Origin: Perna viridis
Lineage: Eukaryota
Direction of reading: 5' to 3'
Length of the DNA stretch: 64,000 nucleotides
NCBI GenBank assembly: GCA_037379345.1
Contig: CM074520.1
Span: 7,626,001 to 7,690,000 of the forward strand
Shown piece after piece: positions 1,355 to 45,142 of the stretch (the stretch's first letter is position 1; every line of letters starts with the position of its first letter). Both the position numbers and the translations under genes were made by a program. The notes below the pieces were generated by a model that was given only the letters and a program-made list of their open reading frames with translations, had not been told where the DNA came from and did no database searches.

Positions 1355-1617
1355 TTCCCTTCTTCTTTCGTCTACCCCGGACTTGACTTGATAAACTCGG
1401 CGGGTGTTTCTAGAAAAGCAAAAACAGGGGACGCTTACCCTACCGGTGCACCTGGTCCATACTCCCAGTGTTTAGTTACTTTTGCTTTTGTTACTTTGTA
1501 TGTATGATTTAATTACTCTATGTTCTTTGTTGTGTGTGTCATTTTTCCATGTCTGGTCTTTGTCCCTGGATTACGTTCTTTTTATTTCCGCTGTAACCTT
1601 GGTTCCTTTGATTACTC
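1355..1617 (+). mobile_element. PLE 3'-end fragment
   Basis: gacgcttaccctaccggtgcacctggtccat ... ttgattactc. Confidence 0.8.
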
Positions 1618-7525: not shown

Positions 7526-10500
7526 CTGGAAAATACACGATAATGGTTAAAGTAAAACGATTGAAAGAACTATAGCTAAAATGCTTCTTGTGGAATAGAA
7601 GCTATTAAAATCTACCTCGACAGTAAAAGAGACAATTATTTACTACGTGCTTGAGTTTAACATTTTTCTAAATATTTCTTGGGTGTTCACCAATAAATTT
7701 TAATTGAAACTGACAGATAAGAGCAAGTTTTAAAAACATAATAATACAATGGAAGATTTTGGACGATAGATGCAGTATATCCTCAGTGGTGAGGTATTAA
7801 ACATTACCATAAAGAGCAACAGTTGCGGGAGTTAATACAAAAACGGGAAACAAACACGTTCAACTTTACCCCAAAACTTATTTTCCATTCACCAATCATT
7901 GACAAAACACAAAAATATACAAGCCAAAAATTTGCCATAATTTACCTAAGAGTGTTTTCCTTTGATAATTACCCAATGAAGTATCTATGCAAGTATTTGA
8001 CAGTAGCCAATATTACCCAATTTGTGTATTAAATTTTGTGCAGTTGAACAGCGGTTTATCTTAGTATGTTTGTTAATTACCAACCCAATAACACTTAAAT
8101 ACCTATGTGTAGTTGGACTGATGTTTATTCTAGTTGCTTCACTGCCAGATTCAAACTTATTTGCCAAAGTGACATTGTTTCCAAATAAACAGTATCTAGG
8201 CATGCGTACACCAACAATTCCAGCTAGGACCGGGCCACTATGCAATCCAATTCGCATCTAGCAATAAATCAGAATAAAGCATCAATACACAAACATAGTT
8301 TAAATATAAGATTTTAGATCGATGCGTATGATTAACACATTTCGGTTTACCATTGACGACTTGTCATCGGGAATCGTTTAAGACAATTTAATGAATATAA
8401 TAGTTAATAAACCAGAATTATCTGATCCATTTTTATCATAGATTATTAACCGTTTTTCCAGTATTACGAAAGTCAAAGGTTCTTAAAAACTCAGGCTGTG
8501 TACAATATAATACCATATAAAAAAACTTAGGCTGTGTACAATATAATACCATATAAAAAACTGAGGCTGTGTACAATATAATACCATATATCAATTTGAT
8601 TGGCATTAATGTATTACATACGTCTAGATAACAAAGTGATCATCAACAAAAAGAATTTTCGAATTAGTCATTATTACCCTTATAGTGTTTCCATCGTGTG
8701 ACTTTTCCTTGCCAGCTGTATCCATCATCCTAATTGCCATCCATGCTATTTGTTGGGCGTGGTATTTTGAAGCCCGATGTAGACCCCCAGCTACACAATA
8801 TGCATCTCCAATGGTCTCTACCTACGATTTAAAGAAAAATTGATATCTTATGAAATGCAACTCACAAAAAAACTAAAACTAATTGATTGTTTTTCGTGGG
8901 ATGAAATTAGATATTAAAAACTAATGATTTGTTTTAAAATAAATAGGCCTTCAAATATTGCATCAAATTTATCGGCGAAAAAGAAGTCAATAAGTATGTT
9001 AGAATATACGAATATGTGCAAACGGAATTTTACTAATTGCTAAGTATTGAGTTTGTTAGTTAACATATTTGTACGAAAATCTTATATTGTCAATCAAATG
9101 AACAAAATCGTGCATTGGATCAGTCATATACTTTTTTATTTTATTACTAGAAGAATTTATCATTAATTTCAGACTGTTTAATAACCCATTAATATCGTCT
9201 TATCATTAAAATTTTATTTCTCATATTCTAGTATAAAGGGCAAATCATTAAGAATCATTAAATATAAATTTTTAATATTTGATGTTATTGCCTAGTCCTT
9301 TTTACAAAGTAATTCCCTAAAGATTAACATTTTATGACCTAAATGTTAAAGCTTAAAGTACCACCATCCAAAGACTACATTACAAAGATAATGAAAAAAA
9401 ATGTATACCAAAACGTGATATTTCTTTTTATAAATAGCCGCCAATGTCATCTGAATATGTGGTGAACCTTGGTATAAGCAGCTTTTCGACGTTTATGAGC
9501 TTTTGAAAAATGACACCTTTATCGGTCAAAGTCGAATGGTAGGATTTTGCCTAGACATTACTTGACAAGTGATTTATTATGTATCAAATAAAATGGCAGG
9601 TTTGTGATGAAGAACATCCGTAATATGTATTAAGTTTCAATTATAAAACTTAATGGCCTTTATCATAAAGTCCCAATTAACGAACTCGGATGACTTTTGA
9701 CACACAATCATGGTTACTATTAAAGTAAAGAACAACAGCAGACATCTCTGTCATTCACATTTCAAATTCAACCCTTTAAAAAAGACATATAATTATTTTA
9801 TAGTAAGGGGTTCCATAATACTAAATATGTAGACACAAACACAAAATTGCTTTTAGTAAGTTCAATCGTAATCAGAGCGAACATTTAATTTCGGAAGTCA
9901 TATAAAACAATATCGGAAACAGAAACACATATCATGCATAAAAATAAAATGATAATGGGTGATAGATAAAACAACACAGAGAAATCTAGATGAAGAAGAG
10001 ACCACGGACTCCATTAAAAACTAGGCGAATGCATTATGCGCTCTGGTGGGATTAGTATCATTTGCTATGAAGAAACACCCGAACGATTCACAAAATACAT
10101 ATTTTGTCAAGAAAGAGATAGGGTATATTAAACGATTGATTAAAACATGCATGTTTTTGAATAGATGTAAAATATTCAGATATACTTTTTTTGACAAGTT
10201 TACCTTGTAGACATCGAGTTCGCCACAGTAATAGTCAAACTGAGTATATAAGGAGTTCAGCATGTTGATAACCATAAGCGGTGTACACGACGAACATATT
10301 GCAGTAAAACCTACTATATCACTAAATAACATAGTTACTTCGTCGATTTTCATTGGCTCTATAGTTTCTCCTGAAATAATGCAAATATTGTACCTAGGTT
10401 AATAGTAACTTTCTAATATTCACTCTTGTATTGTTTTTTTTTTAATTTTAATTCTAATTTTTAAATTATGATTGCTTTAATAACAAAACATAAAATTTCA

Positions 10501-13500
10501 TTTCGTAGCAGGTAATAAAAACACATTAACTTGGTTTGGTGTAGTTAATATATTTCTAAGAAAACAATTTCAAATTCTATCCTGACAGTAACTACTATTT
10601 CAGTTGCGTTAATTTCATTCAATCGATCAAAAGACTTTTTATGTCTTACCTCTCCAAAGACTTGTAGCAATTTTCTCAGGAAATATCATATGAAGTAATT
10701 CAACATTTTTCTTCTTTTCTGTTTGAACAGCTTCACTTCCTTCAATGATACTTCTTTTCATCTGTTCCATTCGTTTCTTTAGGCCGTCCTAAATTTGGAA
10801 AGTAAATTATTGTCTTAAATGACCTTTAATTCCCCCAATCGAGTTTCCAAAACTTCTTATCTCAGATGAGTGGTGTCGCATACATCATTATTATCATGTT
10901 AGTTTGCTTATATTGTTATGAACATTTCTTAGATTTTCCATTCCCTGTAAAATATTGTTTATATGGAATGATTGTGGTAGTTTTATTTTTTCGAAAAGCA
11001 AATTGGTTTAATTTATTTAGACCGGCATTACAAATTTGTGCGCACTTTCGATTTTTTTTTTCTGAAATCGCAAAATGTCCAAATTCAGTGTTCATTTTCT
11101 TAGGCCTACACCCTTCAAAAATGTTTTATGATATTATTTTAAACTGGTATTACAATGTTCGAAGAGCAGAATAATGAAAAGTCATTTTATATTGCCTATA
11201 AATCTTGTTGATTTCAATTAGGTTTTATAACAATTTTTATCAGTGGATATATTAGAATAAGTTACCAAAGCATCGCATGTTCAAAGAGGTTGAGAGAAGA
11301 AATTAACATACCAATATATAAATCAATATACTTTAAATGTAAACAAGGAAATCGGCAACGACCATATTTCCATAATAGTTCAACGTTCTTCTAAGGATGT
11401 ATCATTTTATAGCACATGGCCTATTGGGAATTTAAAATTAATCGCATCAATCTAAGTATTGTGCACTATTCAATCTTTTCGATACCTTTGAAGCTGGTAA
11501 AAAGTGTTAATGTTTCGCCTTTCTGGAAAAAAGTGAGCCTTTCATAAAAATGAAATATGCGTATGGTGTGTCGTTAAAATTTAAACAACCTGGTTTAATC
11601 TACTAAAGATCTAGAAGAAAAACTAAATGTTGAATTAAATCAAACCCTATATCATGTTTATAACACTGCAATAATACTCTGTACATAGGCTTTCAGATAC
11701 GCATTTCGTAGATTTTTTTCATACTTTGATCTATACCTGAGCTTTGGTCTGTTCACCGACAAGTATGAGGTCCCTTGTTGCGTCGTGTATTGGAAGATCT
11801 GATATGTACAACCCTCGGGCTATCAGCTCGTCTAGCTTTTCAATACTTGGTGATCCTAGAAATAATATGTTGTCTGTCTCTTGTAGATAGATCATTTGTC
11901 CCTTCAGCTGCATATGCTATAAGCAAAAAAGGTTTCAACATTAGCATTTTAAATGTACGCTTTTTGGGAATAATTCAACTTTTTACAAAATGCACACTGA
12001 TATCTGCTGTAAATATACGTTGTTACCAAAGTCAGAACCTTGTGGGGCTTTTTTTCACGACGAAGTTTGTTGTGTTCAGAAATAATGATATAAGCATAAA
12101 AATATATTAGCTAAAGGTGAGCGACAACTTCTTATTACAAATGCATTAACCCATCTGCCCACATACTGTAAAAAGGGAAGGTACCAAAAATTTAAGTTTT
12201 ATGGTTGTCATCATGAACTCGTGGATCGTTATGGGGTATCCATCAGCACCATGAAAACTGATGTATTCAACGGGTCATAGTTTTCTCACCTCGTTTGACT
12301 ACCCCTACTTGACTTTTTATGAGCAACTCGGCGGGTGTTTCTAGAAAAGCAGAGGACGCTTACCCTACCGGTGCACCTGGTCCATACTCCCAGTTTTTAG
12401 TGGAGTCCGAGTTGCTCATTTACTTTTGTTACTTTGTATGTATGATTTTGGTTACTTTGTGTGCTTTGTTGTGTGTGTCTGTTTTCCATGTCTGGTCTTT
12501 GTCCCTGGATTGCATTCTTTTGATTACCGCTATAACCTTTGTTCCCTTGATTACTCTTTTAAGAACTATGAACATAGAAGCCGTTCTGTAATCTATTATT
12601 ATTATGCGTGTACTGGAAGACACTTCTTAAAAGCAATAAAATAAGACGTTTTATTTCTTTTTTTTCAAATTTCATTTTATATTTTGGCACATGTTCCTCC
12701 ATTAAATGACAGTCCTTTATAAAGATTTTAGATGAGAAGAAAAACATCTTGTTGTTGATAAATGTCAGCCACAAAAGAATCTTTAAGTCATGCAAAATCC
12801 GATTAAACTATTTAGTTTTGGATAATGTTGGTTGGTTATACCTTTTATACAACATACATATATGTGCCTATTTCATTGACAAATCTGGCGTTGTATTCAC
12901 CAAAGGTCGTAAGAGTAAAGTTGATTGTAATGACATCATAACAGAAAATAGCATTGTAACGTCATAATTTACGATCAATTTTACACTTACGACTTTTTGT
13001 GAATTTGACGCCAGATTGTTAAAATCTTAAAATGTTTGAGTGGCATTCTAGATTAACGCTGGTATTGTCAATTTACAAAGACTGGTGAATGATATCTACA
13101 TAGGATGACTCCCTGTAATTTTTCTCTAAGCCTTTACTTATCACTGTACACCCTTTTTCACGAAGCAACAGAAGAACTGGAAGTTGAACAAGATCAGCAA
13201 TGTTTTTGCATTCATCTTTCTGATACCTTAAAGGCATTTCATTTCTAGCCTATATAGCAGAAATGTACTTTCCGAGGAGGCGATTTATGATATATTTCGA
13301 GTTTACACAAAATATAGAGGCGACATTTCATCATAAGTAGACAATGTCAAAAATATGCCATATCAGACTATATATGACAGGCAGATTCACATATTAACAT
13401 TCTTTTCTTGACGAAAGAAATAGGTCATCTAAATGTATACGCTATGCGTAACAGTTTCTTGTCCAGATACGTTGTCTTTAATTTCATTTCCATGGAAAGC

Positions 13501-16500
13501 ATGTTGCAATTTACCCTTTATATGCAGCCAATTTGTGTCAAACAAATCATCTATTAAGTAGTAGTCTTTGGAAAGATCATGCACTCTGTTATATGTGATA
13601 CACTCCACATTTTTATTTTTGTTATTATGTTGCTTTATAGGTCTGTATAATAAAATGTATTATTATTCATTCCAATCTGTTTGATCTTAGGAGATAATCC
13701 ACATTAAAAATCCAACAGTTTCTATTGTATTTTATTGTTATTAACAGAGGTATCTTCCTTAATTTTGAATTCTACAGTACATTCTATGTAATTTTTATCC
13801 CCTATGAAAAGGGTTATATGAAAAGACATATGTTTATTTCTGTTTACTACAGCATTGTAACAAAATATCAAAAATAAAAATATGTAGGCGTTCCAACCAT
13901 AAATCACATTTTGCATGATTCTTATCTGGAATGATACTTAAATATTTGATTTGGTATAACAAGCTACCAATTTCTGTAAGACACTGGTGTCTGTAAAATG
14001 ATACATACATACCTGTTGTAACTTTGATCCACACTTGTTTTCAAGTACAAATGAGAAATTCACCCGGGAAAGCAGTTTAGAAAATGTAACTTGATCAAGT
14101 TTTGGTCGAACAATGCTGAAGTAAGTGTCAAAGTTCAAGCCTTTTGTTTGAATGTCTGATGCTATAACTTTCATTAGTGATTTCCCTATTTGTACTATCT
14201 TGAGATTTCTGTCAATGATCACATGAAAAGGACATGCCTCACAGAATGTCGATACACCTATTTTTAGGTCGGACGGCTTATCTGAATATGCTGATTGGTG
14301 AACACACACTGTACAGTTACTATTAGACATGCGTTTCTGAGAAGAACTTAGATGAAAGACATGGTGAATACCAACAGATGATTCGCTGGGTTGAACAACA
14401 ATCTCAATCTGAACATTACATAAGTATTCTGCTATTGCAAGTACGATCCCTGCATAATAAGCGAGTAGATGTCGCTTATCTGAGTAAAAGTGCATATCTA
14501 CATTTGTCATTTTGTTCTCACAACGAAACGATGGAGGAATCTGATTTAAAAATTTAGGTGATTTACATATTTCTTCATGAAGTCCATCTAAGTTGCTAAA
14601 GAATTCAACCATATTGCTTCCCATCATCCCTAACGACTTCCCATACTCGGCAAGACAAAGTTTGACATATTCTCCTCCTAGCTGCTTTAGACAGGTTGGA
14701 AGGTCGATTTCTGTTGGACAAAAGATACAAAATCTGGTAAGCATTATTGCTTGTGGTTATCAGCAGTTGATTTTGTTTTAAGTACAAGTCCACATAAAAT
14801 TCAGACACTGCCAATAGTAAAGTGATTCATGGTGTAGAAAAACCCACAGAACAAACAATGCTTTGTCAATCTACATATGCTATATATTTACATAACAATA
14901 TTTATTTCTGTATTCAGATCTGCACTTTTGGGAAAATGTTACATTTATTTCCGACTGAAATCAACCAAATCAAACAAAATCAAGAACAGTGACTCTTGCA
15001 ACGTTCCAATTTCATGTACAATCTATATTTTTTCTCAAAAGCGCAACCACAAAATTGATAAAAACTAAGGCTGGTTATGTGATAAGGAACTAATTCTGAA
15101 CAAGAAATCGAACTGAATTTGGTTGGTTTTTGACATGCATGAATCACCTTCTTTCTGATTTTTATAAGGTCTGATACTTAATATTCCATGGGCTGTATAT
15201 TTTCTGTTTTGCACTTCGACTGTCCAATATCATTTCGAAATGCATCCTATACCTGTACTATATGTCAAAAATGTAGTATTGTTATAGTTCACAGTATTAA
15301 CAGAAGAAAGCTATAAAAAATGTTTTCAGGCTTCAACAAAATCTATCGAGAGATTTGTACATTAAACCTTTTCAATAGCAAATAACTGATTATGAAATAA
15401 AAACAATTAAGTATCACAAATATAACATTAACAACACAATTTTAGTTGATTCATCTTTTTTCAATATTGTTATCATTATATAACATTTTAATATTGGTTT
15501 CTACAAAGTGCTCCCTGTCTGTTTATTCTTATTATATCCTGAGTTGAAAATTAAGTTCAATAAAATGAATTTGGTCACATATTGAATAGTTTCAACTCAA
15601 CTGAAGTCGATAACAAAACATTTACAAAATAAGTCAATGATCATATTGAATTGGAACGAATATTATAAATCCGTTAGTGAATGTATATAGGTTAAAGGTC
15701 AACCAATACAGTCAGAATCTCATTGATTATGTATACATTTGGCAATCTTCTGCAGACAAATGACCTAGAATGTCATCTCCAGGGACGTAGTAATCATAAA
15801 TTGATTGGATTTATAAACCGTGAGTAATTAATATTAGACCTTAATTAAGGCTTTTGATTAACAAATTTTTGCTGAGATTTGTTTCGTTATTGTGTTCACT
15901 TTCATATTGTGTGTTCTAATATAACAGTATTGATGGCCATCCTTCTTTAAAAAAACAACTAAGTATTGCTTTAGAATATCCTGATGTTGTTTTCCCAAAT
16001 ATCAAATATAACCAATATCATATTCTTTAAACAACAACAACATTAGCTTTTTAATGAAACAATACAATTATTTATATTTCACATACAAACATGTTCAAAG
16101 CAAACAAAACTTAACTTCACCTGACTGACCGTGAAGTCTAACTCACAAGTCCTCCCAAAAGGAAATACAAAATTTAACAAGTACTATCTTTAAAAGAAGA
16201 TAACCAACGCAGTAAAATTTATTCTTTTTACTTATTATGTTCTACATTTCATACAGGAATAACACATAGCACGCAATTTCATTTTTTTTTTCAAACGACA
16301 CTTAGTTATTAGTATAATGCCAACCAGGAATCAGAATTGCCATCAGAAAACTTGCGTTTCCATGAAAGAGCGTCTTTGAGGCTAAAAAGTAAAAAGTGAA
16401 GCTATGCCGACTGCGTTTGAAAAAATATAAAATATTATACTATTTTAAAAAGAAGTAGTATCAGAGTGGCTTATAAGAAAGTAAGTATTTCAATTTAAAT

Positions 16501-22500: not shown

Positions 22501-25500
22501 ATACAATACTGTTGTCGCAGGTATTTTTATATGATTGCAATAAGGAATTGAATAAACTTTTAGGTGCTTATTAGAAAATTATTTGATATTTTTATATCAG
22601 CGTCTTTCTGTTTTGTTTCTTTGTTTCCATGGTTGTGTATATATCTCTTCATCATTAAAGATTGACCTAACTTAACTATTGGGGGCAGAACTTGAATTGG
22701 CATTGTAGTCTTTAGCCGGTCGAAGTAACTTCCTGAAGTATCCATTAGTGATAGGAGTAAAGTAGTAATTATATTACAACACTCAAACAATTCAAAAATA
22801 ATCCTATAATCATTCTTATGGATTGCAATACTTAGATCTTAGCTATAATTTTGACCGGGACTTTGCCATATGAGCTGATGTAAAACCACACTTAGTAACC
22901 TTGTGTGAGACAACATTAAGCTTCTGTAACTATTCAGTACAGACCAAGATTCTTCCTAACGTCAACGAGAAGACAAGATTAATGTCATTTGACACCCCGA
23001 AGTTCCTCATTTTCTCAATAACGACAAAAGAATTTTAGAAATTAAAAAATCAGTCTCCTTTTCCGTCTGATCTGGAACATTAACATACATTACAAAGTTT
23101 CAAGCGTTCGAATTATAATTGAATAAATATCAATACTCCCAAGGAATTTGACGGACTTAAGCATTTTTGTAGTGATGAAAGCTCACAACTGAATAACACT
23201 TATTCTTAAGCAAATTAAACTTGTAACATAGTGGATTTTATTTAAGCAGCTAAACGATCTTAGGCTACTTCTCAGATTAAATACAGAAATCTCGTTCATC
23301 GTAGTCTAGTATCAGTATACAATCACGTGACATGTTTTGTTCTAATTTTTTAATTGATTAACAGTTCGTAGACAAAAATTTCTAGCAAACACTTAACATC
23401 TTTTTAAAGATTCAAAAGCTGTCTATTCCGGTATAGTTTTTCATTTAGTAATTTATATTTTTAACTATCATCTTAAAACTACCTTGATTATCTAAAGATG
23501 AAACACAACTTCTTACACAAAAAATATTTCGACTTCATAACAAAAACGAAACATTTCCTAAACAACTAATATGTTATGTGATAATAGAACTAAACTCTTA
23601 TTCATTTTAGACAGGAAAAAGGTAACATATTTTTTAAAGATAATTTTGACTTAACGGGTTAAAGGGTTACCAAGGAAACCATGATTCTATCGGAAACCAA
23701 AAGAATGTAATCCAAAGACAAAGACCAGACATGGAAAACAGACAAACACAACAAAGAACATAAAGTAACTAAAATATTGCATACAAAGTAACAAAGGTAA
23801 ATGAGCAACTGGAACTCCACTACAAACTGAGAGCAAGGACCAGATGCACCGGGAGGGTAAGCGACCTCTGCTATTCTAGAAGATAGACAAAAGAGGAAAG
23901 GAAAACTATGACACGTTGAACAAATCAGTTTTCATGGTGCTGATGGATAAATCATAACGATCCACGAGTTCATGATGACGACCATAAAGTTTCTGTAGTG
24001 ATGACTTCAGATGCCAATTTGTTAGAATTCCAGCAAGATACAAAAAGTCTGCGTAAATACGGCAAGCTCTGGCATAACGTATAAGTTGTGATATGAAAAC
24101 TACATACGCAGGTGATGAAGGGATGTTGCCACAGACGAAAGGAAAGTTGACGATTCTAAATGAAAATTCATCGTAAAGTTTGGTCAGTAGTTTTCCTTTA
24201 CCATTGATCTCTAAGTGTATGTCAAAATAAGAGGCTGACTTCATAGTGTCTGTTGTATCCTTAATCTCAAATTCTTTGGGGTAGATGCGATGTATCAAAC
24301 CCCCGAAACTAGGATTGGTTTAAGGTAATACGTCATTTAAATAGCGGAAACTAAGATTAAATGATATAGCTAAACGATGTTCTTTCTTTCGGTTAGGATC
24401 AGCTATAAAGTCAGTTTCATAAGAGTGAAGGAATAGGTCAGCAAGTAGAGGAGCACAATTTGTTCCCATTGGAATGCCGACTGATTGTTAAAAACAAACT
24501 ATCAATGAAATCCACAAATACAAATTTCAACGCACCAATGACATTAATTCAAATAGTCCACTACATTCACCAAAACAGATCTATAGATAGCACAGCGATC
24601 TATGAATTACTGCGTACATAGCGAAAATTAGACACCAAAAAAATATACGGTATTCACTGCAAAAAAACGACGGGAGAATAATTTATTTTGAACTTGGAAT
24701 AGCACTGAGAGTATGCAGTGTGATAAGAAAAGTGCAGTTGACTTTCTGCACATTCAACAATAAGGATTAAGAAGTACAATACTGACGTAATAAAACAATT
24801 GTGATACCAACGCTTTTGAGAACGTCCTGACATTTAAAGTAGTCCGTGATCTAATTTGGAATTAAGACAGACATATTCAGAGTTGAGTGTGACATGTTTA
24901 ATTTAGTTTTAATTCACAATTTTATGACTCGATCAGTTATTCATTTCTGTTTGCAATTAATTTATCAAGAGCAATTACGATTAGATATTTGGTTTCCTGA
25001 GACAAAAATCAAATTCAATTATACTTTATTTACAATAAATCTTAATTCCGCCTACTCTATTGCACACGTGTAATGTAAAAGACTTTTACATTCCACTCGA
25101 CCAATTTCTTCTTTAGTCAAATTTATCGCAAATTTATTTTGCAATTATATCCACGCTCATTTATTGGGAAATTGTAAACAAAGTTGATTATATAAAAAAA
25201 AATAACACACACATAAAACCTGCTGCATCTAAAGTATTAATTCTGAAAATTACACATAAAATATAGCAATATAATAAAAATGAAGTGTTGGGGTACGCTA
25301 TACTGCCCTGCACTTTCTAATGCAAATAGGTCAAAAAGGTTTCAAAAGACAAGACATACAACTCATTAAAATGCTTGCCTACCTAATTGCAAGCCATTTG
25401 GGCATCTGTATTGCACAAATTTCTAGAATGAGCGAATGTAACTCAATACGAAATTTTCTACATTTTATAAATCCACACAGCTGTATAATAAAAAACATTC

Positions 25501-28330
25501 TGTTAGATTGAATGCATAAATATCATATGGGAATGGCAATAAATTAGATCTAAGTCATTTGGGCTGAATATTAGTTTCCTTTCGAGGTAATCAACTGTAT
25601 TTAGAACTGAATTTTGGGTTATTTGTCGTATAACTTGACAAGCTATAAAATCGTTTAAAATCCACTATATACGATTAGGATATTATATGGCTTCTTTGAT
25701 CGAACGATGGTTGGAACGTTATAAATTCATCCATAATTGGTTACATGCAAATTAAACATTAATCTATAGGATTCCAGCACAGACTAAAGAAGATTATAAA
25801 TTGTATGAATGTTGAAGTACATTTTTAAAACGCAAGTATGAAATTATTTTTTTTATTAAAGAGTAACCTTGCCGTAAAATTGCATAACAAGATCACATTT
25901 TTTATATAAAATGCTTCAATCTCACACTTTATATACGCAACTTATCTGATAATTTGTTTGATATTAAAAGATCTAAATAATAAATATTGTAAATAAATAA
26001 CAAATAACAAATCTAAGAGTCGTTGTTAAATTGATTTGGTAAGATACATTAAATAACCTTCTGTTTTCTTTAAAACAACTTCTGAGTTGCTTAATTACTG
26101 TTAGGTTTTTATTTTCTTATAATCCGCTGGCTTTATATAATTTTCAGATATAACAATTCCATATTTAGAACCAGGTTGTGATTACAAAAGTTTTATGAAA
26201 AAAATGACGACACCAAATACATGTCTGCGTATTTCCCATTTTAAAGGTACAGGAAATTTAGGTTCACAGAATTAACCGTTTTGTGTGTCAAAAAGAAACA
26301 ACATTTCCTGTCAACTATTCCTCTTAACTATAGTAGATTGTGAGTTAATCCCCATCCAAGACTTAGTTTTCCTTTCCTATTTGTTATATGACAACAATCT
26401 GTTATTATACAAAACTCCTTCACAGGCATGTTATCAGATTCCAGCAGTTGTTTTACTTTGCAAGCTGAATAAGTAGAAAATTGATTTTTAATACATGTAT
26501 ATTGAACAATTTGTTCTATATAGGGACATGGGTAAAAGGTGCCTTACATAGGTGCCTGTCTCTTAAAACGAAATACTCATATTAAAAATAAAATATTCTC
26601 TGTAGGGAGGTTTTAAGACAATAAAACTTTCTATCGCCCCTGTCGGTAGACACTATTAATATTTTGCTTTTCTTTATCAGCCAACTTTCTCGGTCAATCA
26701 GTCCACATTCTGTAATCAACACTGAACTGACTGCAAATTATACAAATCAACACCATAAATAAAGTTTCTTTTGGTAAAATACAATTCTTATTAGGGAAAG
26801 TCAGTATTTAGAGTAGGGTCATCAAGGATAAATTGGTAGCTTCCCAAGAAATAAACCAAGCGTTTATTATTAACAGGACTCCTGATAATTGGTGATTTAT
26901 TACCATAGGCAATAACGGTCTAGATAGACTAATGTCACTAAAATACTTGAAATATATCACTTAAGCAATGCTTTTGTGAATTATGTTCTATTTAGGCTCA
27001 ACTCTTAAAATGTGGTCAGACCGTAAGACAATATTGAGATCTAGATAAATGCTCAATCGTCCTTTTGCGACTATGTTAAAAAAACTGTGTTTTGCTTATG
27101 AAAACAATTTGCCAGTGTGAGAATTTTATATAAAATAAAAAAGTGGAATTTGATTCAAATCACTACAAATTGAACAATTGTAATAATAAAATAAAAAAAT
27201 AATTAAAAAGTATTTCCATACTATAATTATGCATATGCTTTTCCCTTTTCTGTCCCATAGTAAACATCGTTATGGTGTATCCATCTGCACCATGAAAACT
27301 GATTTATTCAACGGGTCATAGTTTTCCTTTCCTCGTTTGTCTACCCCGGACTTGACGTTTTATGAGCAATTGGGCAGGTGTTTCTAGAAAAGCAGAGGAC
27401 GCTTACCCTACCGGTGCACCTGGTCCATAATTCCAGTTTTTAGTGGAGTCCGAGTTGTTCATTTGCTTTTGTTACTTTGTATGTATGATTTTGGTTACTT
27501 TATGTTCTTTGGTATGTATGTCTGTTTTCCATGTCTGGTCTTTGTCCCTTTATTACATTCTTTTGATTACCGCTATAACCTTGGTTCCCTTGATTACACT
27601 TTCAATAAAACACTTATTTTGTTATGTAAATAACAAGATATAAGCAAATAAAGCTCACTAAAGAATAACCCAGCTCTCCATCCAATAAATCATATGGCCA
27701 AAATATTTAAACACAACATAAAACTGATGTGGCATCAGTAAGAAATCGAATATCTATACAAAGCTCATGTCAACAGATCAATGGATGTGTAGTTAATGTA
27801 AAAACGTTGTGGACAGATGGACGGACGGAGCACTTTTTTCCTCAAACAAAGCGGAAGTGTAATAACATAGAATAAAAACAATATAAAGACAGCACATTGC
27901 CATAAAATGTGATTTGTCTTCTTAGTAAACAAAATGTTAACATATTCTGTATCCAGTATTGTAAGAAAGAAATGTCGAAATAAAGAAATCTTATACAATC
28001 TATGGTATATAAAAAATTAAAAAGCACGTGTTACAATTTATAACTGTTTTACCAATTGTTTCTAATACAAACAGATCATGTACATATTGTTAGTGGTAAT
28101 TCGAATGTTTATTCGCCACATTTGATTGATATACAATTGTATTAATATCTATCAGACATATTGAATAAATATTAACTTGGTTTCTGTTTTAATTACAAGT
28201 TCTAGTCAAATATTTTGATTTAACCATTTGTTTGCATAAGGTATATACGAGTTTTATAAAATCTACAATACTCTAATGTCTAGTATAAACTGAAATCATT
28301 AGCTACTTTTATAATGGGGTGTTCTAGGCG

Positions 28331-28369
<39 letters not shown>

Positions 28370-31300
28370 CGAATAGATCTTATCTTTGTTTATTTTATCT
28401 TTAGATATTGCTGCACAAATTATATTCTGTATTTTGTCATTGCATTATTTCATTATCTTCATTTTGTTCCGAACTAGTTGTTCCATTGATCCGTAGTTTT
28501 GTCCCACAATTGTCTGCGTGTGGAGTTTTGATTCGTTCTGGAGTCTAAACATTGGGCGGTTGTTTTATCTTTCTTGTTTAGTGTTTTCTACGATGAGTAT
28601 TGTATCTTTAACTTAAAATTATTTGTAATTAGCAATTTGAACGCCTTCTAAAATTGTTAGCATGAATTAGATGAAATAGAAATGTTCAAAGACGGTTATT
28701 TGTTTACAAGCATTGTTGATTCTTAGTCTATTCTGCTTTAATCCTAAATTGTTTAAAACTTAAAGAGGAAGACATGGTTGTTTAACTATCATAAATTGCT
28801 TCACTACCGAAGCATCAAATTAGAAACCCAGTTCAAAAACACCAAAATTCCAAAAAAAATATAAAAAAACAATCAACATACAAATTATAGACACAAATAA
28901 AAAAGTAAAAATCTCACAACTAATACAATAAAAAGGCCCGCGAATAACCAGGAGTGACATCTGATTTTTCGACAGGGTAAGCATGTCCTGCTCCATCAGA
29001 GATACCTTTGAAAATTGCAAGTATGTAAAATGTAGACGCGTTTAAAAGTACGGTCACATATAAAACATGAAGATTAGAAAAAGAAGAAATCTCACCAAAA
29101 AAAAAAATAAATAAATAAATAAATAAAGCAAAATAAAGTCCCACATTAAAATGGGAGTGAAGTCAGATATTCCGACAGTGTAAGCATATCCTGCTCCTAT
29201 AGAGACATCCGTGAAAATTGCTAGAGAGTGAAATGCAGTGATAGTCAATTAAACAATTCGTACATGAATTGCAAGAATTTTTTTCCATGAATAAAAATGG
29301 CCTATATGTATTGCTTTCTTATCATAAAAATTGTCGATTCTTCGTCGTCGTTTCTTCCTTAATATCGTTCAAAACTTTAAGAAGAAGATTTGTTTGTTTA
29401 AATATCTTACGTAGGTGTTGAAAGATACAGGAAATTGACACAAGGTAGATAACGCTGACAACTGGATTAAACATGTTTATACAAAGCTTACTCTAAGATT
29501 AAACTTCAGGAAAGCTTCCGGAGCAGATGGATGGTTAGATAACATCAAGATGCTTTTCGATGTTCAATTTCATTTATTTTCAAGACAAAACTACATTATT
29601 CCGTGTTCGTAACAAATGAAACGTCAGTGTTGCTTAAAAGAACGAAGTAAGTGGATGTCGTACAGAGACAAATCTGTGTTGTTTAGTTAAGCACGATGTA
29701 GTTTTTAGTGCGTTGACATTATTGGCCTTAGTTAAAGTATGCTGTGGGTTCTTTTAAAATGTAAATTTCATTAAATAGATGACATTGATGCGTATTATCA
29801 AATGGTAATATGGATATTTTTTAACCAAATTACAAACGATTGTAAATGATATTTGTATTTTTATTTGGAATAAAAATTTAGAAATGACCATTATGCATAC
29901 AGGCTAGATATGTAAAACTGCACAGGATACTGTTATAGGGAACTTTTGGGGTTTTAAGTACAACAATAAGATTTTGACAATATCAGTGGTCAGATTTAAA
30001 AGGTTAAACAAATAATGTTTGTCTTCATCGACTTAACCAAACATTTAGAATCCACGGAGCTAAATCAAACACATTCCCTAGAAATAGGATAAGGTTATAT
30101 TAGTACATGACAAATAAGACTAAAATAGTTTAATATTTTCGTTTATTTAATAGCCTTGTACGTAGAAGAATGTTAGTGCAGTTGTAAATTATACTTAAAT
30201 TCATACCAGATAAATACAACAAAACGTTCAATACATTCCATACAGTAATCTGGTAATTTACAGACAATTTATTACACACGCTAAATTGTGTTGTCATATA
30301 TGTTTGTACCTTGTAAAACCATGACATCAACTTTACATCAGACAGAAGATCATTCTGATTATTATAAAGCATTGAAGCCTAGAAAGAACCGTATCCAATA
30401 TGAATGATATTTTTTTACATGTACATATAAAATATGTTGCTACAAAGGTGTTTCGCATTGAAATTACACATTGAGAAGACCATTAATGATATTTCTACAA
30501 ATTATAATTAATAAAAATACGTTTACCAAACAATGACAATCTGATGCTTACAATAGACGTGAAGCTACAGTCAAGATTATTGAAGCAAATATCTGTATAC
30601 ATTATGTAAAATAAAAAAAACCTGGTATAAATGCTTCTTATTCATTTTTTCTTTATTGATGGACTTTTCAATTGTATTTAGTCGATTAAAAATCAACAAG
30701 TCTGTCTCTTTTAAGTGAAATCTTGCTTTTTTAAATTAAAGAGTCTGAAAAAGCCCTGTAGATTTCGATTTAGTTTGATATATTGTAATGTCCGTGTTTG
30801 TGCATTGTATTTTGGTTAATTGATTCCATGACATTTTGTTCTAAAAATATATATGTTGCAAAAAATCAAGTGTCATATACAACACTACCCATTGTCGCAT
30901 ATAATGATGAAGTGACATCAATAGCTTTCTGTTTCTATGGTGATGTAATACAGAGTCTATTAATGCAGACTATTTGTTATGATGATTGTATTACACCTTT
31001 CTACAACAACGAGTTTCAAATTATGTGTCCATAATTTATCATTTGATAAAAATTAACTTTGTATGTTTCAAGCATCAATGCTACATTAAATACTAGGCCA
31101 TAAGAAAGATTTCATTTTAAAATACACAAACAACCAAGCGTTTAATTGTGGTCTGAAAAAAAAACAATTCAAATAATTGGTATAAGTAAGCAAGATTGTT
31201 GCACTATGTATAAAAACACCAATCATTTTAATATAGCAAATTGCATTATGCTGTGTACGTGGGGATTAGTAGAATTAGGACCAAATATTAGTTCGAGATT

Positions 31301-33570
31301 AAAAAACAATGTATACAAGAAATATTCAAAACCAAACAATATCGAAATAGAAGGTCAAATCCAGCACTGATAATTTCTATCAGAGTATGTGAAAAAAACT
31401 AGATTAGTGTAGCCCATGCCTAATTCAAGGACTAAAGCGTTAAAGTGTTAAGGGATTGTTGTATGTATTATCAAAATGATGAAATACATTTATATAGATT
31501 CCTTCACTTCTATTGATATTATGAATGTAAATAACAACGTTTTACTACACTGAGACCATGACATAATTTTTATACTAGCAATTTACGATCCATGTGTCCC
31601 TATAAAGACCATCAACAAACGATATTATTTCCATGTCATATATAACTGGTAAAAGGAGATGAATTTTATTACAGGTTGTGTGGTGATAACGTTTAAGTAC
31701 GAGTAAGCCCTTAATCTGTCTTATATTATAGCAACTGATAAGTTATATACCTTACCTTTAATTATGCTTTAAATGTTTGGTCGCTCATGTAAGTTACGCT
31801 AATTTTACAAAATGAAATTCACTTTAGTTACACATTAATTTACATCGATATTTTTTTAATGTTTCCTAAGAAGAATAACAAGTAAATTATCTGCTTATTT
31901 GATTTTTGTTCACACAAAAAAAAACATACAATGACTTTGGTATTGAACACATAAGTAAAAATATTTGTTCAACGCATGGATCTTAGAGGTAAATCGTACA
32001 TTTGCCAAAATATCATGATAATCAATGTCAAAATGTTGAAATCAAACTAATACAAAATCAGTAATTAAGTGTCAGTTTTAGTAAGAATTAAGCAAAATGT
32101 GAAAAATCAGAAACATGCATGTCAAACCCACCAATATGACAATGTAATATCACTCATGGATAATTTCTCTATTTGAAAGACCGCTTTTTGGCTTTTTTTC
32201 ACTCACTACCTGATTCTTACAGAGACTAATACTTAACACATATCACATTTAAATAGCAGTAAACAGAATTTTTAACAATGAACATAAAATATATGGTAGT
32301 AACTGCAGATGGTTTTAACTATGAAAGATAAATAAAGAATCGAAGGGGAGAGTGAAACTTCCCAATTAAAGAGTCTCTTGAAATTCTACTTAACCCAACC
32401 TCAAACAAAGTGAATCCCTTTCATTTCAATCGATTCGGTGATTTGCTTTTTAATTAAACCTTCAGTAAAAGTCATTAGAACGTTTATATGGTATAAAATG
32501 GCAAAGCTGCTATAAAATGCCAACCTGTTTATAGCGTTTTTCATATGCTGTAATCGGAATATTAAAGGACAAACCTTTAGGCTAATGAATATACACCAAT
32601 GCCTATGTGGAAAGTTGGTGCAGAAAATTAAACCTTAATTTATTGAGCTGCATTAAAATTTGTATTTACAGCACCGATATTTATATAATATAATGCACAT
32701 CAAGGAGATTGAATGTTACAATTAACTAGGTATTATTACTAAATGATGATTATATGATATGTCGTAACCAGCATGAACCTCACATTAAGTTGTAGATCAG
32801 ACGATAGCACCCACAGAGGGTAATGAATTGGTTTATATTATAGTAAAACAATCTCTCAGAGGATATACTAAAAATTTATATGGTAAACATTGCATCCTCC
32901 CTACAGTACTACATCCACTAAATCCTCCTCATAAAGATCTCTGCTATTCATAAAGCTACATTGGTGTGTAAAATTGAATGCATGATAATGGAAAACTTTC
33001 TAATTCTAACTTATTATACCACAAAAAGTGGGGTAGTCGACTTCAGTAAAAGCGGAGGGACACTCACTAAATAACTGCATATGTCTGTCATACGACTTTA
33101 ACCAAAACACTGCTTGCAGCATAAGATATTTTATCACAAACAGACTCGTCGGTACTTGACCCAAAACCTTCTTTTAAGTATATATGCGCATTTGATCAGT
33201 TATATATGACATTTATATGTTCATAACTTACCGATGGCAACAAAAGGGTTCCAACACTTTCTATCAAAGCCACAAGTCCAAGTTTTCTTTCTCCTTCGTC
33301 CAGTTCATCAGACGATGCTTGAGAGCTAAGAGATAGTCCACTTTCCTTCCTTTGTTTATTTGACGGTGACAGGTCCCGTCCAATCTTGTGCGACGGGGAT
33401 ACATCTCTCCCAGAAACTGTTCCGTTTGTTACTGTTACTTTGATTTCACATTTTATATCGTTAGAAATTTCTTGGCAGTTTTCATCGTTTTTGCCCTTCT
33501 CAGTACAGCTAGACTGGTTTTTGATCAATTCGATTTCGTTTTTTACAGCTGCTTTAAATGGACAGCTCAT
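7336..33570 (-). CDS. GUCY1A: Soluble guanylate cyclase alpha subunit, whole gene; join(complement) 33232-33570, 17874-17944, 17337-17458, 14013-14710, 11737-11916, 10650-10788, 10204-10370, 8678-8821, 8103-8257, 7336-7525; 2205 nt, 734 aa
   Basis: Domain order H-NOX, PAS/H-NOBA, coiled coil, cyclase. Alpha-type motifs: N-terminal [47 protein letters not shown]. All introns GT-AG, phases join into one open frame. Confidence 0.93.
8103..8257 (-). CDS. GUCY1A: sGC alpha coding exon 9 ([29 protein letters not shown]...)
   Basis: Guanylate cyclase signature MPRYCLFG. Confidence 0.95.
8486..8590. repeat. Tandem repeat, 3 x 35-36 bp
   Basis: aggctgtgtacaatataataccatata three times. Confidence 0.95.
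8678..8821 (-). CDS. GUCY1A: sGC alpha coding exon 8 ([15 protein letters not shown]...GNTIR)
   Basis: Second metal-binding Asp motif; 144 nt, phase 0 to 0. Confidence 0.95.
10204..10370 (-). CDS. GUCY1A: sGC alpha coding exon 7 (cyclase, [15 protein letters not shown]...LDVYK)
   Basis: First metal-binding Asp motif; cag| ... AAG|GTAAAC. Confidence 0.95.
10650..10788 (-). CDS. GUCY1A: sGC alpha coding exon 6 (coiled coil [11 protein letters not shown]...[17 protein letters not shown])
   Basis: tttag| ... G|GTAAGA; 139 nt. Confidence 0.93.
11737..11916 (-). CDS. GUCY1A: sGC alpha coding exon 5 (HMQLKGQM...[19 protein letters not shown])
   Basis: H-NOBA signature LKGQM / [14 protein letters not shown]; 180 nt, phase 0 to 0. 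Confidence 0.95.
12194..12557 (+). mobile_element. PLE 3'-end fragment (well preserved)
   Basis: RT C-terminus ([13 protein letters not shown]) plus full 3' UTR ending cccttgattactct. Confidence 0.85.
12882..13017. mobile_element. Fold-back MITE
   Basis: ~50-bp imperfect inverted arms aatctggcg..attcac..ggtcgtaagagtaaagttgattgtaa / ttacgatcaattttacacttacgac...gtgaat..cgccagatt. Confidence 0.7.
14013..14710 (-). CDS. GUCY1A: sGC alpha coding exon 4 (rest of H-NOX and start of PAS/H-NOBA)
   Basis: Within ORF 13938-14744; NLDGLH, PSFRC and [15 protein letters not shown] motifs; cag| ... CAG|GTATGT. Confidence 0.95.
14782..15164 (+). repeat. Dispersed repeat, copy A (inverted relative to 18012-18388)
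   Basis: Collinear reverse-complement match along ~380 bp, e.g. tcagacactgccaatagtaaagtgattcatggtg. Confidence 0.85.
17337..17458 (-). CDS. GUCY1A: sGC alpha coding exon 3 ([10 protein letters not shown]...CRAASTAL)
   Basis: ttttag| ... C|GTATGT; 122 nt, phase 2 to 1. Confidence 0.85.
17874..17944 (-). CDS. GUCY1A: sGC alpha coding exon 2 ([24 protein letters not shown])
   Basis: tttcag| ... AG|GTAACC; 71 nt, phase 0 to 2; resembles the first H-NOX helix; not in the ORF track. Confidence 0.82.
18012..18388 (-). repeat. Dispersed repeat, copy B (inverted relative to 14782-15164)
   Basis: caccatgaatcactttaccattggcagtgtctga and other matching blocks; a short third remnant near 32101-32135. 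Confidence 0.85.
18649..18840 (+). mobile_element. PLE 3'-end fragment
   Basis: taccggtgcacctggtccatg ... cccttgattactct. Confidence 0.85.
21134..21280 (+). mobile_element. PLE 3'-end fragment
   Basis: gttgctcatttgcttttgttact ... ccttgattactct. Confidence 0.8.
23662..24495 (-). mobile_element. Penelope-like (Naiad-type) RT fragment plus 3' UTR
   Basis: [24 protein letters not shown]...FRYLNDVL* followed by ORF 23906-24298 ([10 protein letters not shown]). Confidence 0.85.
27267..27600 (+). mobile_element. PLE 3'-end fragment
   Basis: atcgttatggtgtatccatc ... cccttgattacact. Confidence 0.85.
28820..29225 (-). mobile_element. Two tandem 3' UTR-like units of a second, related retroelement family
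   Basis: Minus strand ggagcaggacatgcttaccctgtcg and ggagcaggatatgcttacactgtcgg, the same core as the main family, each followed by a T-rich tail. Confidence 0.6.
33232..33570 (-). CDS. GUCY1A: sGC alpha coding exon 1 (MSCPF...[12 protein letters not shown])
   Basis: ATG at 33570; donor TCG|GTAAGT; an acceptor ttttag| at 33625 implies an upstream non-coding exon. Confidence 0.85.
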
Positions 33571-35014
33571 TTTCGTAGAAAGTCCTTTATTCCTTACAAC
33601 AATTTGTCCTGATCATTGTGGTTCCTAAAAATCCAACAGATTAAAGATTTCAATAGAAGCGTACAGTCAACATCACCTTCGTTAACTAAAGAAGATAATG
33701 GTATACTATAAACAACAGCGAACAGAACGTCCAAATGGATTATAAATATCACAACACGTGCTCTAGACGTTTTATAAACATTTTAGCGAAACTTGATTTG
33801 AATGAATATGAGAGATTCTATACTTGCCATACATTCAACGAGAATTTTATAATAACATCAGAAGTTATAAACCACATTGTCTACTTTAATCTATATTGAA
33901 TCACTTTCCTAGGTCTTCACTGAAATATATTAGCCACGATGGAGCATTTAACCTTAGGTTACAGGTCATAATGTGGGTGTTTTTAAACACCCAAGTTGTG
34001 TCCGGACTTGACAATGTTGGAAAAGGATTTACTTTCGATATTCCCACCATATATTTCCCGTTCCTCCCTATTCTTTAGACATCTCGGTGATTATGGATGG
34101 TGTTTACATTCATTGATCCGTTGATTTGATGTACGAGGAGAAATACAACAGCTTTATTAACATAATCTGCAAGAAAAATAGGACTTTTTAAACAATTTTA
34201 TAATCTACTTTTAAAATAATCGCGAATGATTGAACATACAGCATGCAGTGTGCTCTGGGTGAATATGATTTATAGGTTAACAGCTATGAAAATACTAACT
34301 GAGATTCAGATTAATGTATCTACAAATTATACTAATTGAACAGTTTGTTTTGTTTTGACATTTATTACTTAGCAGCAGTAAAATCAATTTTTGCTTCCGT
34401 CTTAACGATTTTAAAACAATACTTAATTAACTAATTTCTCTGGTTAGTTTCTGTAATTACATGTACATTAATTAATTATCATTATCCCAAAGGCAAAATA
34501 AGTTGTCGGTGAAAAAATACCTAGAATTTGTTTCAAACTTGACACAAATAATTTAAGTATGATCGAATGATAAAAAAAACAAGCCAATAATTACTCTGAA
34601 ATTTTATCCAATACACAAAGATGCACGCAGTCGTAAAATTCATACAAGTTCTGTAGAGCCTTTGAAGAGTTAGATTTATTCGAACTACATTGTCATTATA
34701 TGCTATTAGATGGTCATCAATCAGACTTGTGCAGATTCTCAAATGTAAGAAAACTGACATCTGATTCCAAGTTTTCCCAGATCAATGCAAAAGAGCATAC
34801 ATAACTCTCTGTATCTGATAGCTCATTACAATGGACATTTAATTGGCTTTCCCGCATTATTCACCACGTCTGATGTCGGGCACAATTATTTTCACTATTC
34901 ATGTCGTATTTATGATACTTATTAATTTTTGACGGAATTGGTCCTGAGATTTTTAACGTAATACATGTAATAAGAAGTTTTCATATCTTGATGGTGGTCG
35001 TAATACAGAATTTG

Positions 35015-39265: not shown

Positions 39266-39730
39266 TTATTTCCCCTCGTTTGTACATTGGGTTCTCCGAC
39301 CATTGTTTTGTCCACAGATTTTCTCTTGTTTGTACATTGTGTTCCTGTCTTTGTTTTGTCTACAGATTTTTCCTCGTTTGTACATTGGGTGTTCCAACCA
39401 TTGTTTTGTACGGATTTTCCCTCGTTTGTTCATTGGGTGTTCCAGCCATTGTTTTGTCCGATGATTTTCCCTCGTTTGTTCATTGGGTGTTCCAGCAATT
39501 GTTTTGTCCAAACATTTTCCCTCGTTTGCACATTGGGTGATCCAGCCATTGTTTTGTCCACAGATTTTTCCTCGTTTGTAGATTGGGTGTTCCAACCATT
39601 GTTTTGTACGGATTTTCCCTCGTTTGTTCATTGGGTGTTCCAGCCGTTGTTTTGTCTGTAGATTTTCCCTCGTTTGTATATTGGGTGTTCCAGTCTTTGT
39701 TTTGTCATCAGATTTTTCTCGTTTGAACAT
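39266..39730. repeat. Minisatellite, ~10 x 48-50 bp
   Basis: Unit gattttccctcgtttgttcattgggtgttccagccattgttttgtc; source of ORFs at 39251-39760. Confidence 0.95.
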
Positions 39731-40215
39731 TTCTAATAGAAATTTTTTACTAAGGGCCAATGACTTGGTAGTATGTTTCGACGTGTTATTTTTACAATAA
39801 TGTCACTTTAAAAATATTTATAAGATCGAATATAGGGATTTTCTGTACGATTTGGTCTTCACCCTATCATATACAATGTACTGTTTGATTAAAGACCAAT
39901 TAAATTTACGTTAAAGGGTTTCAAAATTTAAATGAACTCACTCAATTATTTAAATACTGATATACGATGCTTTGTTAGAAGTGCCTTTCTGCTTGCAATA
40001 TTTGTTCATTACTGGTGTCCTGAAAATTATTTTTTGTCATTTATATAAACACATGGCGTAAAATATAGTTTATAAACGTTTGAAAATTGCTTTCTTAATT
40101 CAGTACTTATGTAATAAAACAACCTCTTTTAAAAATATAACCGGCGTTGCATGACGTAAATAGTATTTTCATATTACAAATCAGATATTTTTAGATTCAC
40201 ATCATTTTTACAATA

Positions 40216-42818: not shown

Positions 42819-43075
42819 AGAATAATCAAGGGAACCAAGGTTATAGCGGTAATCACAAGAATGTAATCCAGGGACAAATACCAGACATGGAAAACAGACA
42901 TACATAACAAAGAACATAAAGTAACAAAAATCATACATACAAAGTAACAAAAGCAAATGAGCAACTCGGACTCCACTAAAAACTGGGAGCATGGACCAGG
43001 TGCACCAGTAGGGTAAGCGTCCTTTGCTTTTCTAGAACCACCGTGTTGCTCATAAAAAGTCAAGACCGGTAGCAT
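42819..43075 (-). mobile_element. PLE 3'-end fragment
   Basis: Reverse complement of the family 3' UTR; source of spurious ORFs at 42741-43102. Confidence 0.85.
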
Positions 43076-43699: not shown

Positions 43700-45142
43700 T
43701 ATTAGTAATATCCTTGAGGATCATTAAAACTTTATGTTGTCTTATTTGATTTCTGTGTGTTATAGTATGTAGTATATGTTATAGATTCTTCATACTTCAT
43801 GCTTCCACAGGAATCCACAACAAGGCTACATAACTCGATCTGCAAAATGTACCACCAACCGGCTTTCAAAATTTTAACTTCTATACTCACAGCTGTAAAA
43901 GACCGTCTCCAGTCCTACCACGACACCTGTTTCTCCCGAAGTGGTGTTAATTTAATGTGGATCCTGCGAAGATTTTCTGGAAATCCTCAAGGTTATTATC
44001 AGAATACAATAGCATTAAAATATATAACTTTTCAACTCTTTATAATTCTATTCCCAATACTCAGTTAAAATCCCGACTCAAAAACATTATTCATCGTTAA
44101 TACTCCAAAAAGGTCAGTACACCTAGCTGCAAATGTGTAGTTCTTGGTATAGACTTCGTATACCTTGTAAAAAAACGATTCCAAATCATCTTCCAAATAT
44201 ACCAAAGAAGACGTTTTCAAACTTATGGAATTTTTATTCGACAACATATTTGTCCAGTAGGATGGACGCGTTTTTTCAATAAACGGTTGACATTCCAATG
44301 CGAACAAATTGCGCTCCGGATCCTCCACTAGCCGACCTTTTCCTTCATTCTTATGGGGCTGACTTTACTGCCGATCTAATCTAAAGAAAGGTTCATCGTT
44401 TAGCCGGATCCTTTGATCTAACTTTCCGCTATATAAATGACGTATTATCGTTACACAATCCTAATTTCGGGGATTTGATACATCGCATCTACCCTACAGA
44501 CCTTCATATATAGGATACTACAGACACTGTGAAGTCAGTCATATCTTGATCTACACTAAGGGATCCATATAAAGTAAAACTATTGAACAAACTATACAAC
44601 TTTTCCTTTTTCTGTGGCAACATCCCTTCAGCACTTGCGTATGGAGTGTTCATATCTCAACTCATACGTTATGCCAGAGCTTGCCGAAACTACACAGACT
44701 TTTTGTATCGCGCTAGAACTCTAACAAATAGGCTTCTGAAACAGGGTTATGTTGCTACAAGATTGAAGTCATCACTACAGAAGTTTTATGGTCGTCATCA
44801 TGAACTCGTGGATCGTTATGGTGCATCCATCTGCACCATGAAAACTGATTTATTTTCATAGTTTTCCTTTCCTCGTTTGTCTACCCTGGACTTGACTTTT
44901 TATGAGCAACTCAGCGAGTGTTTCTAGAAAAGCAGAGGACGCTTACCATACCGGTGCACCTGGTCCATGCTCACAGTTTTTAGTGTGGAGTCCGAGTTGT
45001 TCATTTGCTTTTGTGACTTTGTATGTATGATTTTAGTTACTTTACGTTCTTTGTTGTGCATGTCTGCTTTCCATGCCTGGTCTTGGTGCCTGGATTGCAT
45101 TCTATTGATTACCGCTATAACCTTGGTTCCCTTGATTACTCT
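43700..45142 (+). mobile_element. Degenerate Penelope-like retroelement (Naiad-type), RT region plus 3' UTR
   Basis: Broken-frame RT motifs [74 protein letters not shown]; ORF ends after the RT thumb with no C-terminal GIY-YIG; 5' boundary approximate. Confidence 0.8.

Follow-up and report, generated by a model that had tools for sequence, protein, structure and literature searches.

The 3' UTR and pseudo-LTR (pLTR) of one large group of Naiad-type Penelope-like elements (PLEs) carry a conserved RNA motif, which on balance we read as a predicted self-cleaving ribozyme of an undescribed class, likely working as a dimer of two copies. The parts of this reading differ in strength: that the motif acts as a dimer is very probable, and that it is catalytic, given a dimer, is a prediction we hold to be reasonably probable. 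The widest form of the claim is evenly poised—a new dimer-only ribozyme class with two intermolecular palindromic helices would extend from cnidarians to chordates and over two unrelated retrotransposon superfamilies, and the pLTR slot would be interchangeable between hammerhead, twister and the new class. The main feature of the motif, overlooked by the original prediction, is a pair of loop-less palindromes (Table 1).

Architecture of the motif and its place in the window

The window is a stretch of 64,000 nucleotides of Perna viridis contig CM074520.1, and the Naiad copy described here is intronic, within a soluble guanylate cyclase gene on the minus strand. Its RT fragment (12194-12280) closes with a TAG codon at 12278-12280, and the motif begins 39 nt after that stop. 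P1 stacks directly on P2; a linker follows, and P5 then abuts P1, making a three-way junction. The original prediction had placed P1, CGGGTG/CACCTG, AAGC/GCTT, ACCCT and ACTCC/GGAGT correctly. P5 is free in sequence and length across families, from 4 to about 25 bp, and the conserved stretch between the two palindromes is a candidate catalytic or tertiary core. The motif folds with z = -3.5 (0 of 200 shuffles were as stable); the minus strand, at z = -3.6, comes near this value.

Table 1. Parts of the motif, further copies and other features, in window coordinates
Feature	Position	Strand	Remarks
5'-truncated Naiad copy	12194..12559	+	last 28 RT codons, stop, 3' UTR
P1 5' strand, outer helix	12319..12331	+	13 bp with 12407-12419; sequence free, pairing kept across families
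P2 5' strand CGGGTG	12332..12337	+	same by eye in 12/12 published consensi; elsewhere preset by the search pattern
Palindrome 1, TTTCTAGAAA	12338..12347	+	loop-less self-complementary 10-mer; predicted intermolecular helix
Conserved core RVCAGRNNNNGCTYACYCN	12348..12366	+	possible 3-bp stem with 7-nt loop, then YACYC
Palindrome 2, ACCGGT	12367..12372	+	8 bp counting flanking U-G pairs; predicted second intermolecular helix
P2 3' strand CACCTG	12374..12379	+	G-U wobble in 24/25 representatives, G-C in 1/25
P2-to-P5 linker	12380..12385	+	5-6 nt in 17/25 representatives
P5 hairpin (ACTCC 12386-12390/GGAGT 12402-12406)	12386..12406	+	flush against P1
P1 3' strand	12407..12419	+	pairs with 12319-12331
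Main-family copy with indels	1379..1515	+	
Main-family copy	23779..23904	-	deletion within motif; behind RT
Main-family copy	27353..27484	+	
Further decayed copy, second family	28895..29023	-	adjacent to the next copy
Decayed copy, second family	29103..29233	-	divergent copy of the original prediction
Main-family copy	42935..43067	-	
Main-family copy	44893..45026	+	behind about 650 nt of RT
Soluble guanylate cyclase exons (HNOB, HNOBA, Guanylate_cyc)	10021-14756	-	surround the 12194 copy
Reading frame	33196-33612	-	listed beside the guanylate cyclase exons
Weak MFS transporter match	56646-57005	-	
MED7 coding region	60234-60860	-	
Tandem repeat	39254-39731		50-nt period
Another dispersed repeat family	13553-13941 with 48491-50784		

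The host element and its copies

Naiad identity, as originally proposed, is upheld by features set out in section 6 of Craig et al. 2021 (PMC8557442, covered in part). The translation of L325 places a GIY-YIG endonuclease N-terminal to the RT, together with CX2-5CxxC and CCHH fingers, and Pfam finds GIY-YIG in L320 at E = 0.00019, its 22.1 bits falling short of the 22.6 cut-off. L041 and L325 show PPDCSC (the CxC linker), GPKY and PADKA (the DKA motif), and YIDD is seen in long copies; pLTR partial tandems, inverted 5'-truncated copies and a tail are all present. Full-length elements hold two same-strand motif copies, 3,399-3,403 nt apart in L320, L321 and L325 and 3,102 nt apart in L322.

Two tandem arrays were also observed. 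At G000:C3:46.03-46.08 Mb (L400-L406), 16 near-identical Naiad units of 3,409 nt, their ORF broken, are arranged head to tail; this array likely expanded after insertion. A 5.1-kb tandem repeat of at least four units occupies G000:C6:47.13-47.15 Mb; each unit (L320, L321) is a full pLTR-ORF-pLTR Naiad with two motif copies.

A covariance model, whose training set included the 12319 copy, gave 10 matches in the window at E up to 1. It gave 52 matches in 800 kb of evenly spaced genome samples, a density which suggests that the genome may carry tens of thousands of copies. The invariant-core search pattern, CGGGTG-N11/12-CAGR-N4-GCTYACYC-N7/10-CACCYG, has 10,298 exact matches in the genome (G000, 723 Mb); its reversed control has none.

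The copy at 29126-29225 is a member of a second family, most other members of which retain CGGGTG/CACCTG, and a search for RT upstream of this copy found none. Its P2 changes had been put forward as family-level covariation, and the genome-wide counts do not bear this out: the G>A plus C>T double change is seen 56 times against 43.9 expected (Fisher p = 0.10; 10,298 unchanged, 833 and 543 single changes). The double change in this copy is neutral decay. A compensatory subfamily in P2 was likewise rejected, the double changes fitting the expectation from single ones.

Palindromes and covariation

The cluster set comprises 155 matches, among the matches listed, a figure that includes 30 loci of G000; the resulting 43 clusters, none dropped, include chance matches and decayed singletons. 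In this set, 22 of the 37 distinct modal 10-mers of palindrome 1 are fully self-complementary, and Watson-Crick pairing at the central position stands at 0.73, compared with 0.32 when shuffled (both among the matches listed). For each of the five pairs 0 of 10,000 column shuffles reach the observed value, and for palindrome 2, with 29 distinct 6-mers and Watson-Crick pairs counted, at most 4 of 10,000 do, in a register set by a length rule chosen after the data were seen; these counts, again among the matches listed, overstate independence, the clusters being related; about half of the matches come from one assembly. Self-complementary central 4-mers make up 11 of the 17 distinct ones, or 35 of the 43 clusters (among the matches listed), and because 11 different ones occur, several double changes are needed whatever the kinship of the families.

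The self-complementarity that marks a dimer-forming RNA is kept, in sequence, by compensatory change, the central pair included. Because adjacent central bases cannot pair within one strand, and yet their complementarity is kept, the conservation points to pairing between two copies. Among the matches listed, eight of the ten 10-mers from the largest clusters form no hairpin alone, and all ten form duplexes of 9-19 kcal/mol. Co-folding lends modest support: the gain averages -8.6 kcal/mol against -6.4 for shuffled segments and is better in 28 of 43 clusters (among the matches listed), with a program that cannot form both palindromes at once.

A set of 25 representatives was picked by hand and favours clean examples; in it, pairing holds for 97% of cells, and two-sided change is seen in all eight palindrome pairs (8/8). 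P2 is invariant here except for a change from G-U to G-C; being invariant, P2 and most of the core yield no covariation signal. The AAGC/GCTT hairpin of the original prediction stands as a sequence and not as a covarying helix: its AGC/GCU stem shows no two-sided change in the 25, and the middle pair is broken in four of them. Cognate P1 strands score 7.7 against 4.6 for crossed families, and the cognate partner ranks first in 10 of 25 representatives, in a test that missed some families and searched a range of 130 nt (the partner in L167 lies beyond it). Between them, the palindromes and P1 pairing support the earlier proposal of a conserved structured RNA with cross-family covariation. Subfamily-level variants, counted by eye, fall on 0 of 91 non-CpG sites within the motif and on 11 of about 170 flanking sites (p = 0.01). 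This is a real RNA motif under selection.

An alternative fold, GGGUG/YACYC with a CAG/CUG pseudoknot, is disfavoured—by eye, the C variant of CACCYG breaks it and keeps P2, and one published consensus, in the part of the supplement covered, has ACTA. The RNA may switch between the P2 fold and the GGGUG/YACYC fold.

Spread beyond the genome

Exact strings and inspection by eye place the motif in 12 of the 54 published Naiad consensi (PMC8557442 File S5, covered in part), a minimum, since a string search overlooks variants and motifs split by line breaks. The 12 comprise two from Clytia, five from bivalves, four from hemichordates and one from a toadfish, three of them assigned by their order in the file; by eye, both segments are self-complementary in all 12. 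In metagenomes the core pattern matches at least 122 stretches, about half from one assembly, and in IMG/VR it matches none. Its three stretches in prokaryote genomes are two apparent chance matches and one Naiad-like contaminant, and the matches in bacterial DNA at L060, L182 and L184, which have no palindromes, are apparently chance. A Naiad-like RT match lies upstream in 18 of the 43 clusters (among the matches listed).

Three further observations belong here. L183, a contig of 407 bp filed under a bacterial genome, holds a Naiad 3' end near-identical by eye to a published pearl-oyster consensus and is likely contamination. At L165 the motif follows a reading frame that ends, by eye, like a ubiquitin-specific protease. 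In two Chlamys (green algae) consensi, in the part of PMC8557442 File S6 covered, a P2-like helix, GACGGGTG, encloses a near-palindrome with a 1-nt centre; a distant relationship to the motif is possible.

The motif also occurs behind a different kind of ORF. In L167 a stop codon precedes its start by 57 nt, and the ORF closed by this stop shows, over 60 aa, 70% identity to the C-terminus of P0003, a 1,254-aa RT whose best PDB matches are R2 proteins; in L066 and L164 the motif lies behind an N-terminal piece of the same R2-like ORF type (presumably HERO-type). This link rests on three short contigs from two lineages, which carry palindromes of their own; L081 and L110 possibly also show the motif behind pieces of R2-like ORFs. 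The association may be a chance insertion of a truncated Naiad. Taken at face value, the R2-like contexts suggest that the motif is not tied to the Naiad protein.

The 3' end and a second conserved motif

The motif had been proposed to define the 3' end, and the copy ends speak otherwise: in 1.02 Mb sampled, 63 of 96 lie at +225 to +236 from CGGGTG, about 140 nt past the motif and beside a different conserved motif. The 5' truncation points (n = 82) are spread out, with no pile-up in the motif. The second motif, CTGCTGGTGG..TCCCCGAG, sits at the tail junction and has 203 pattern matches in G000; in 15 of 30 loci it follows the first motif at a distance of 247-249 nt; an example (L325:5960-6060, minus strand) has a helix, an internal loop CTGCTGGT/CCRAG and a small GGA..TCC hairpin. 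It is found at the 5' start as well as the tail junction of Naiads, and it starts published coral, bivalve, hemichordate and fish consensi in the part of the supplement covered.

The only PLE examined in vitro begins reverse transcription at its tail, not at its hammerhead (PMC11167929, covered in part), and for this reason we consider the second motif, rather than the first, the better candidate for RT recognition or initiation. Recognition of the first motif by Naiad RT, as once suggested, is weakened on two counts: sister Naiads do without the motif, and an R2-like element carries it. At the 3' end (12519-12556 of the window) 410 RNA-seq reads step back by 38 nt, which fits reiterated Naiad tails.

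Alternation of motifs in the slot after the RT

The idea that the motif substitutes for a hammerhead gains support from a sister family in which a twister-like motif fills the same slot. Published Mgal, Bpla and Mphi consensi, as far as the supplement was covered, lack the present motif, keep the second (5') motif and show, by eye, twister-hallmark sequence and palindromes after the RT; the features used for recognition are those we take to be twister's. A local twister-like Naiad family (L340-L374) has 67 exact matches in G000 and none in the control, and its RT is 45-56% identical to that of motif-bearing Naiads. The twister-like core follows the RT in 12 of its 15 loci, and the present motif stands at that spot in 0 of 15. 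No twister core was found within 600 nt upstream of the 5' motif in 30 loci. Other Naiad consensi, in the part covered, show hammerhead-like cores by eye. An RT tree on 13 of 42 rows, picked for clean frames and meant to show whether the twister-like family nests among motif-bearing ones, drew in the long branch L097 at support 33.

Proposed mechanism and its rivals

We favour a dimer-dependent ribozyme because of the slot exchange, the R2-like ORF context, the precedent for dimer gating in PLEs and the avoidance of the motif by variants. A pLTR-ORF-pLTR transcript would bring two motif copies together; palindrome 1 would pair with its counterpart in the other copy over 10 bp, roughly one turn of helix, and palindrome 2 likewise over 6-8 bp. 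Two symmetric junctions would result, each made of P2, two intermolecular helices and the partner's conserved core, and a lone copy in a host transcript would stay inactive. The dimer would then cut, possibly helped by the element's protein, and release unit-length RNA; this RNA may become circular and serve as template for more-than-unit cDNA, a route already proposed for dimeric hammerheads in other PLEs. Reverse transcription would start elsewhere, at the tail about 230 nt downstream, beside the second conserved motif. The precedent comes from PLE hammerheads with a palindromic helix III, which cleave as dimers (PMC4209133, covered in part).

In RNA-seq run X21 (about 19%, 18,102 records) molecules do not start or stop in numbers at any one position, and the reads derive from both strands. 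The null result weighs little, because most copies are single and decayed and because an active PAc hammerhead left no read-end pile-up either (PMC11167929, covered in part). Among 95 copies, no mutation hot spot was found as a ligation scar.

The main rival, unlikely if by no means negligible, is a non-catalytic dimerisation or packaging signal akin to a retroviral kissing loop, which would anchor a pair of RNA copies to a dimeric Naiad protein and promote the template switching behind tandem and inverted insertions. Such a signal would produce the same palindrome covariation; the invariant P2 helix suits recognition by protein, the PAc protein is a predicted dimer whose hammerhead is dispensable for insertion in vitro (PMC11167929, in the part covered), and a cleavage footprint is absent from the 82 truncation points and from X21. 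Set against it are the twister-hallmark motif that sister families hold in the same place, the occurrence of our motif after an unrelated R2-like ORF, and an unpaired core with invariant bases that exceeds the needs of a kissing signal. 3'-UTR recognition is common among non-LTR elements, and a monomeric cis element bound by Naiad RT, setting the 3' end or the start of reverse transcription, would agree with the 3' UTR position, the deep conservation and the stable monomer fold; we consider it improbable, as most copy ends lie well downstream, published Naiads without the motif keep the other motif at the tail junction (in the part covered), and complementary central bases would be useless in a monomer.

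A twister or hammerhead that has diverged strongly or swapped strands, its core put together from two molecules, is about as improbable. Its order would be loosely like that of the sister twister motif (CGGG, palindrome, UAC/UAA-CC, CCUG and CAGG, by eye), and CUGA follows P2 in most families; yet the U of CUGA is C in some families, GAAA, UAA and GAGG are conserved at no fitting place, and neither Rfam nor the hallmark strings, counted below, lend support. Least likely of all is a DNA-level feature or neutral by-product, in which proteins bind the palindromes or template switching corrects inverted repeats. Stems that fold equally well on either strand and individual copies that decay neutrally would suit it; palindrome sequences that differ freely between families, wobble pairs that read G-U on the sense strand (24 of 25 in P2), fixed linker lengths and chance bacterial matches devoid of palindromes would not.

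The finding bears on a point of Craig et al., namely that Naiads make pLTR tandems without a canonical hammerhead. New self-cleaving ribozyme classes are rare; searches at sites where known ribozymes alternate are what yielded pistol, hatchet and twister-sister (PMC10085705, covered in part), and slot alternation in Naiads invites the same search logic for this 100-nt motif. Should dimer-gated RNAs recur in this slot, that would argue for the pairing of two pLTR copies as a step central to Penelope-like transposition. And were the motif not catalytic, two loop-less helices joining one natural RNA to another would still make an uncommon architecture, of which this genome has over 10,000 copies.

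Comparison with known RNAs

A search of Rfam, at E up to 10 in the window and at E up to 5 in 16 loci, finds nothing at the motif, a weak negative in that Rfam also misses the sister twister-like motif; twister-sister and hatchet, for which Rfam scans alone were used, gave no match. Among the matches listed, the hammerhead core CUGANGA occurs in 2 of 43 clusters, with GAAA at no conserved place, the twister L4 string in 0 and its L1 string in 6, the hairpin Loop B string AGAAACA in 5 and the pistol GCG, which follows the pseudoknot strand, in 1 (hairpin and pistol have no Rfam match). The HDV-like L3 string occurs in 5 of 43 and the SECIS string RUGA..AA..GA in 4 of 43 (among the matches listed); the bases after P5 pair in P1, and, where a SECIS element would go with an in-frame UGA in the ORF, the endonuclease cysteines of L325 are plain Cys. 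In the literature searched, motif strings included, no published description of the motif was found; subscription journals or preprint supplements may hold an earlier one.

Twister ribozymes have UAA in L1 opposite GAGG, a P4 loop with CC..GC/GU and the pseudoknots T1 and T2. The twister-like (type-P5) motif of mytilid-type Naiads shares with the present motif its slot after the Naiad RT stop and its palindromic segments, and the two were not found together in one element. It has a P4 with a CC..GU loop, YAA and GAGG, none of which the present motif has, and by eye it shows compensatory changes in P2 and P4. HDV-like ribozymes are built on a nested double pseudoknot with P3/L3 and an unpaired J4/2 that carries the catalytic C. 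Those of non-LTR retrotransposons resemble the motif in a G-rich helix that has a G-U wobble close to its base, with a variable hairpin coming next; the motif, unlike them, has no P3/L3 (3 bp and 7 nt) before the P1 3' strand, and where they form J4/2 after the hairpin, its bases pair in the covarying outer stem. Retroviral dimer-initiation kissing loops likewise vary in sequence and keep complementarity, whereas the motif belongs to a non-viral retroelement and sets two palindromes in a multi-way junction that has an invariant core.

The host is that of the Naiad clade, with N-terminal GIY-YIG, CxC, DKA, pLTRs and inverted copies (Craig et al. 2021, PMC8557442); the covered parts of that paper report no canonical hammerhead in Naiads and do not describe the motif. 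The minimal dimeric hammerheads of PLEs (Cervera & de la Pena 2014, PMC4209133, covered in part) are alike in lying in the pseudo-LTR as two copies about 3 kb apart, and in a loop-less palindrome such that only the dimer can fold. The motif differs from them in lacking a CUGANGA/GAAA core, in having two palindromes rather than one, and in its extra three-way junction of P1, P2 and P5. Although a member of none of the classes tested, as far as its sequence can tell, it resembles the dimeric PLE hammerheads in position and in design.
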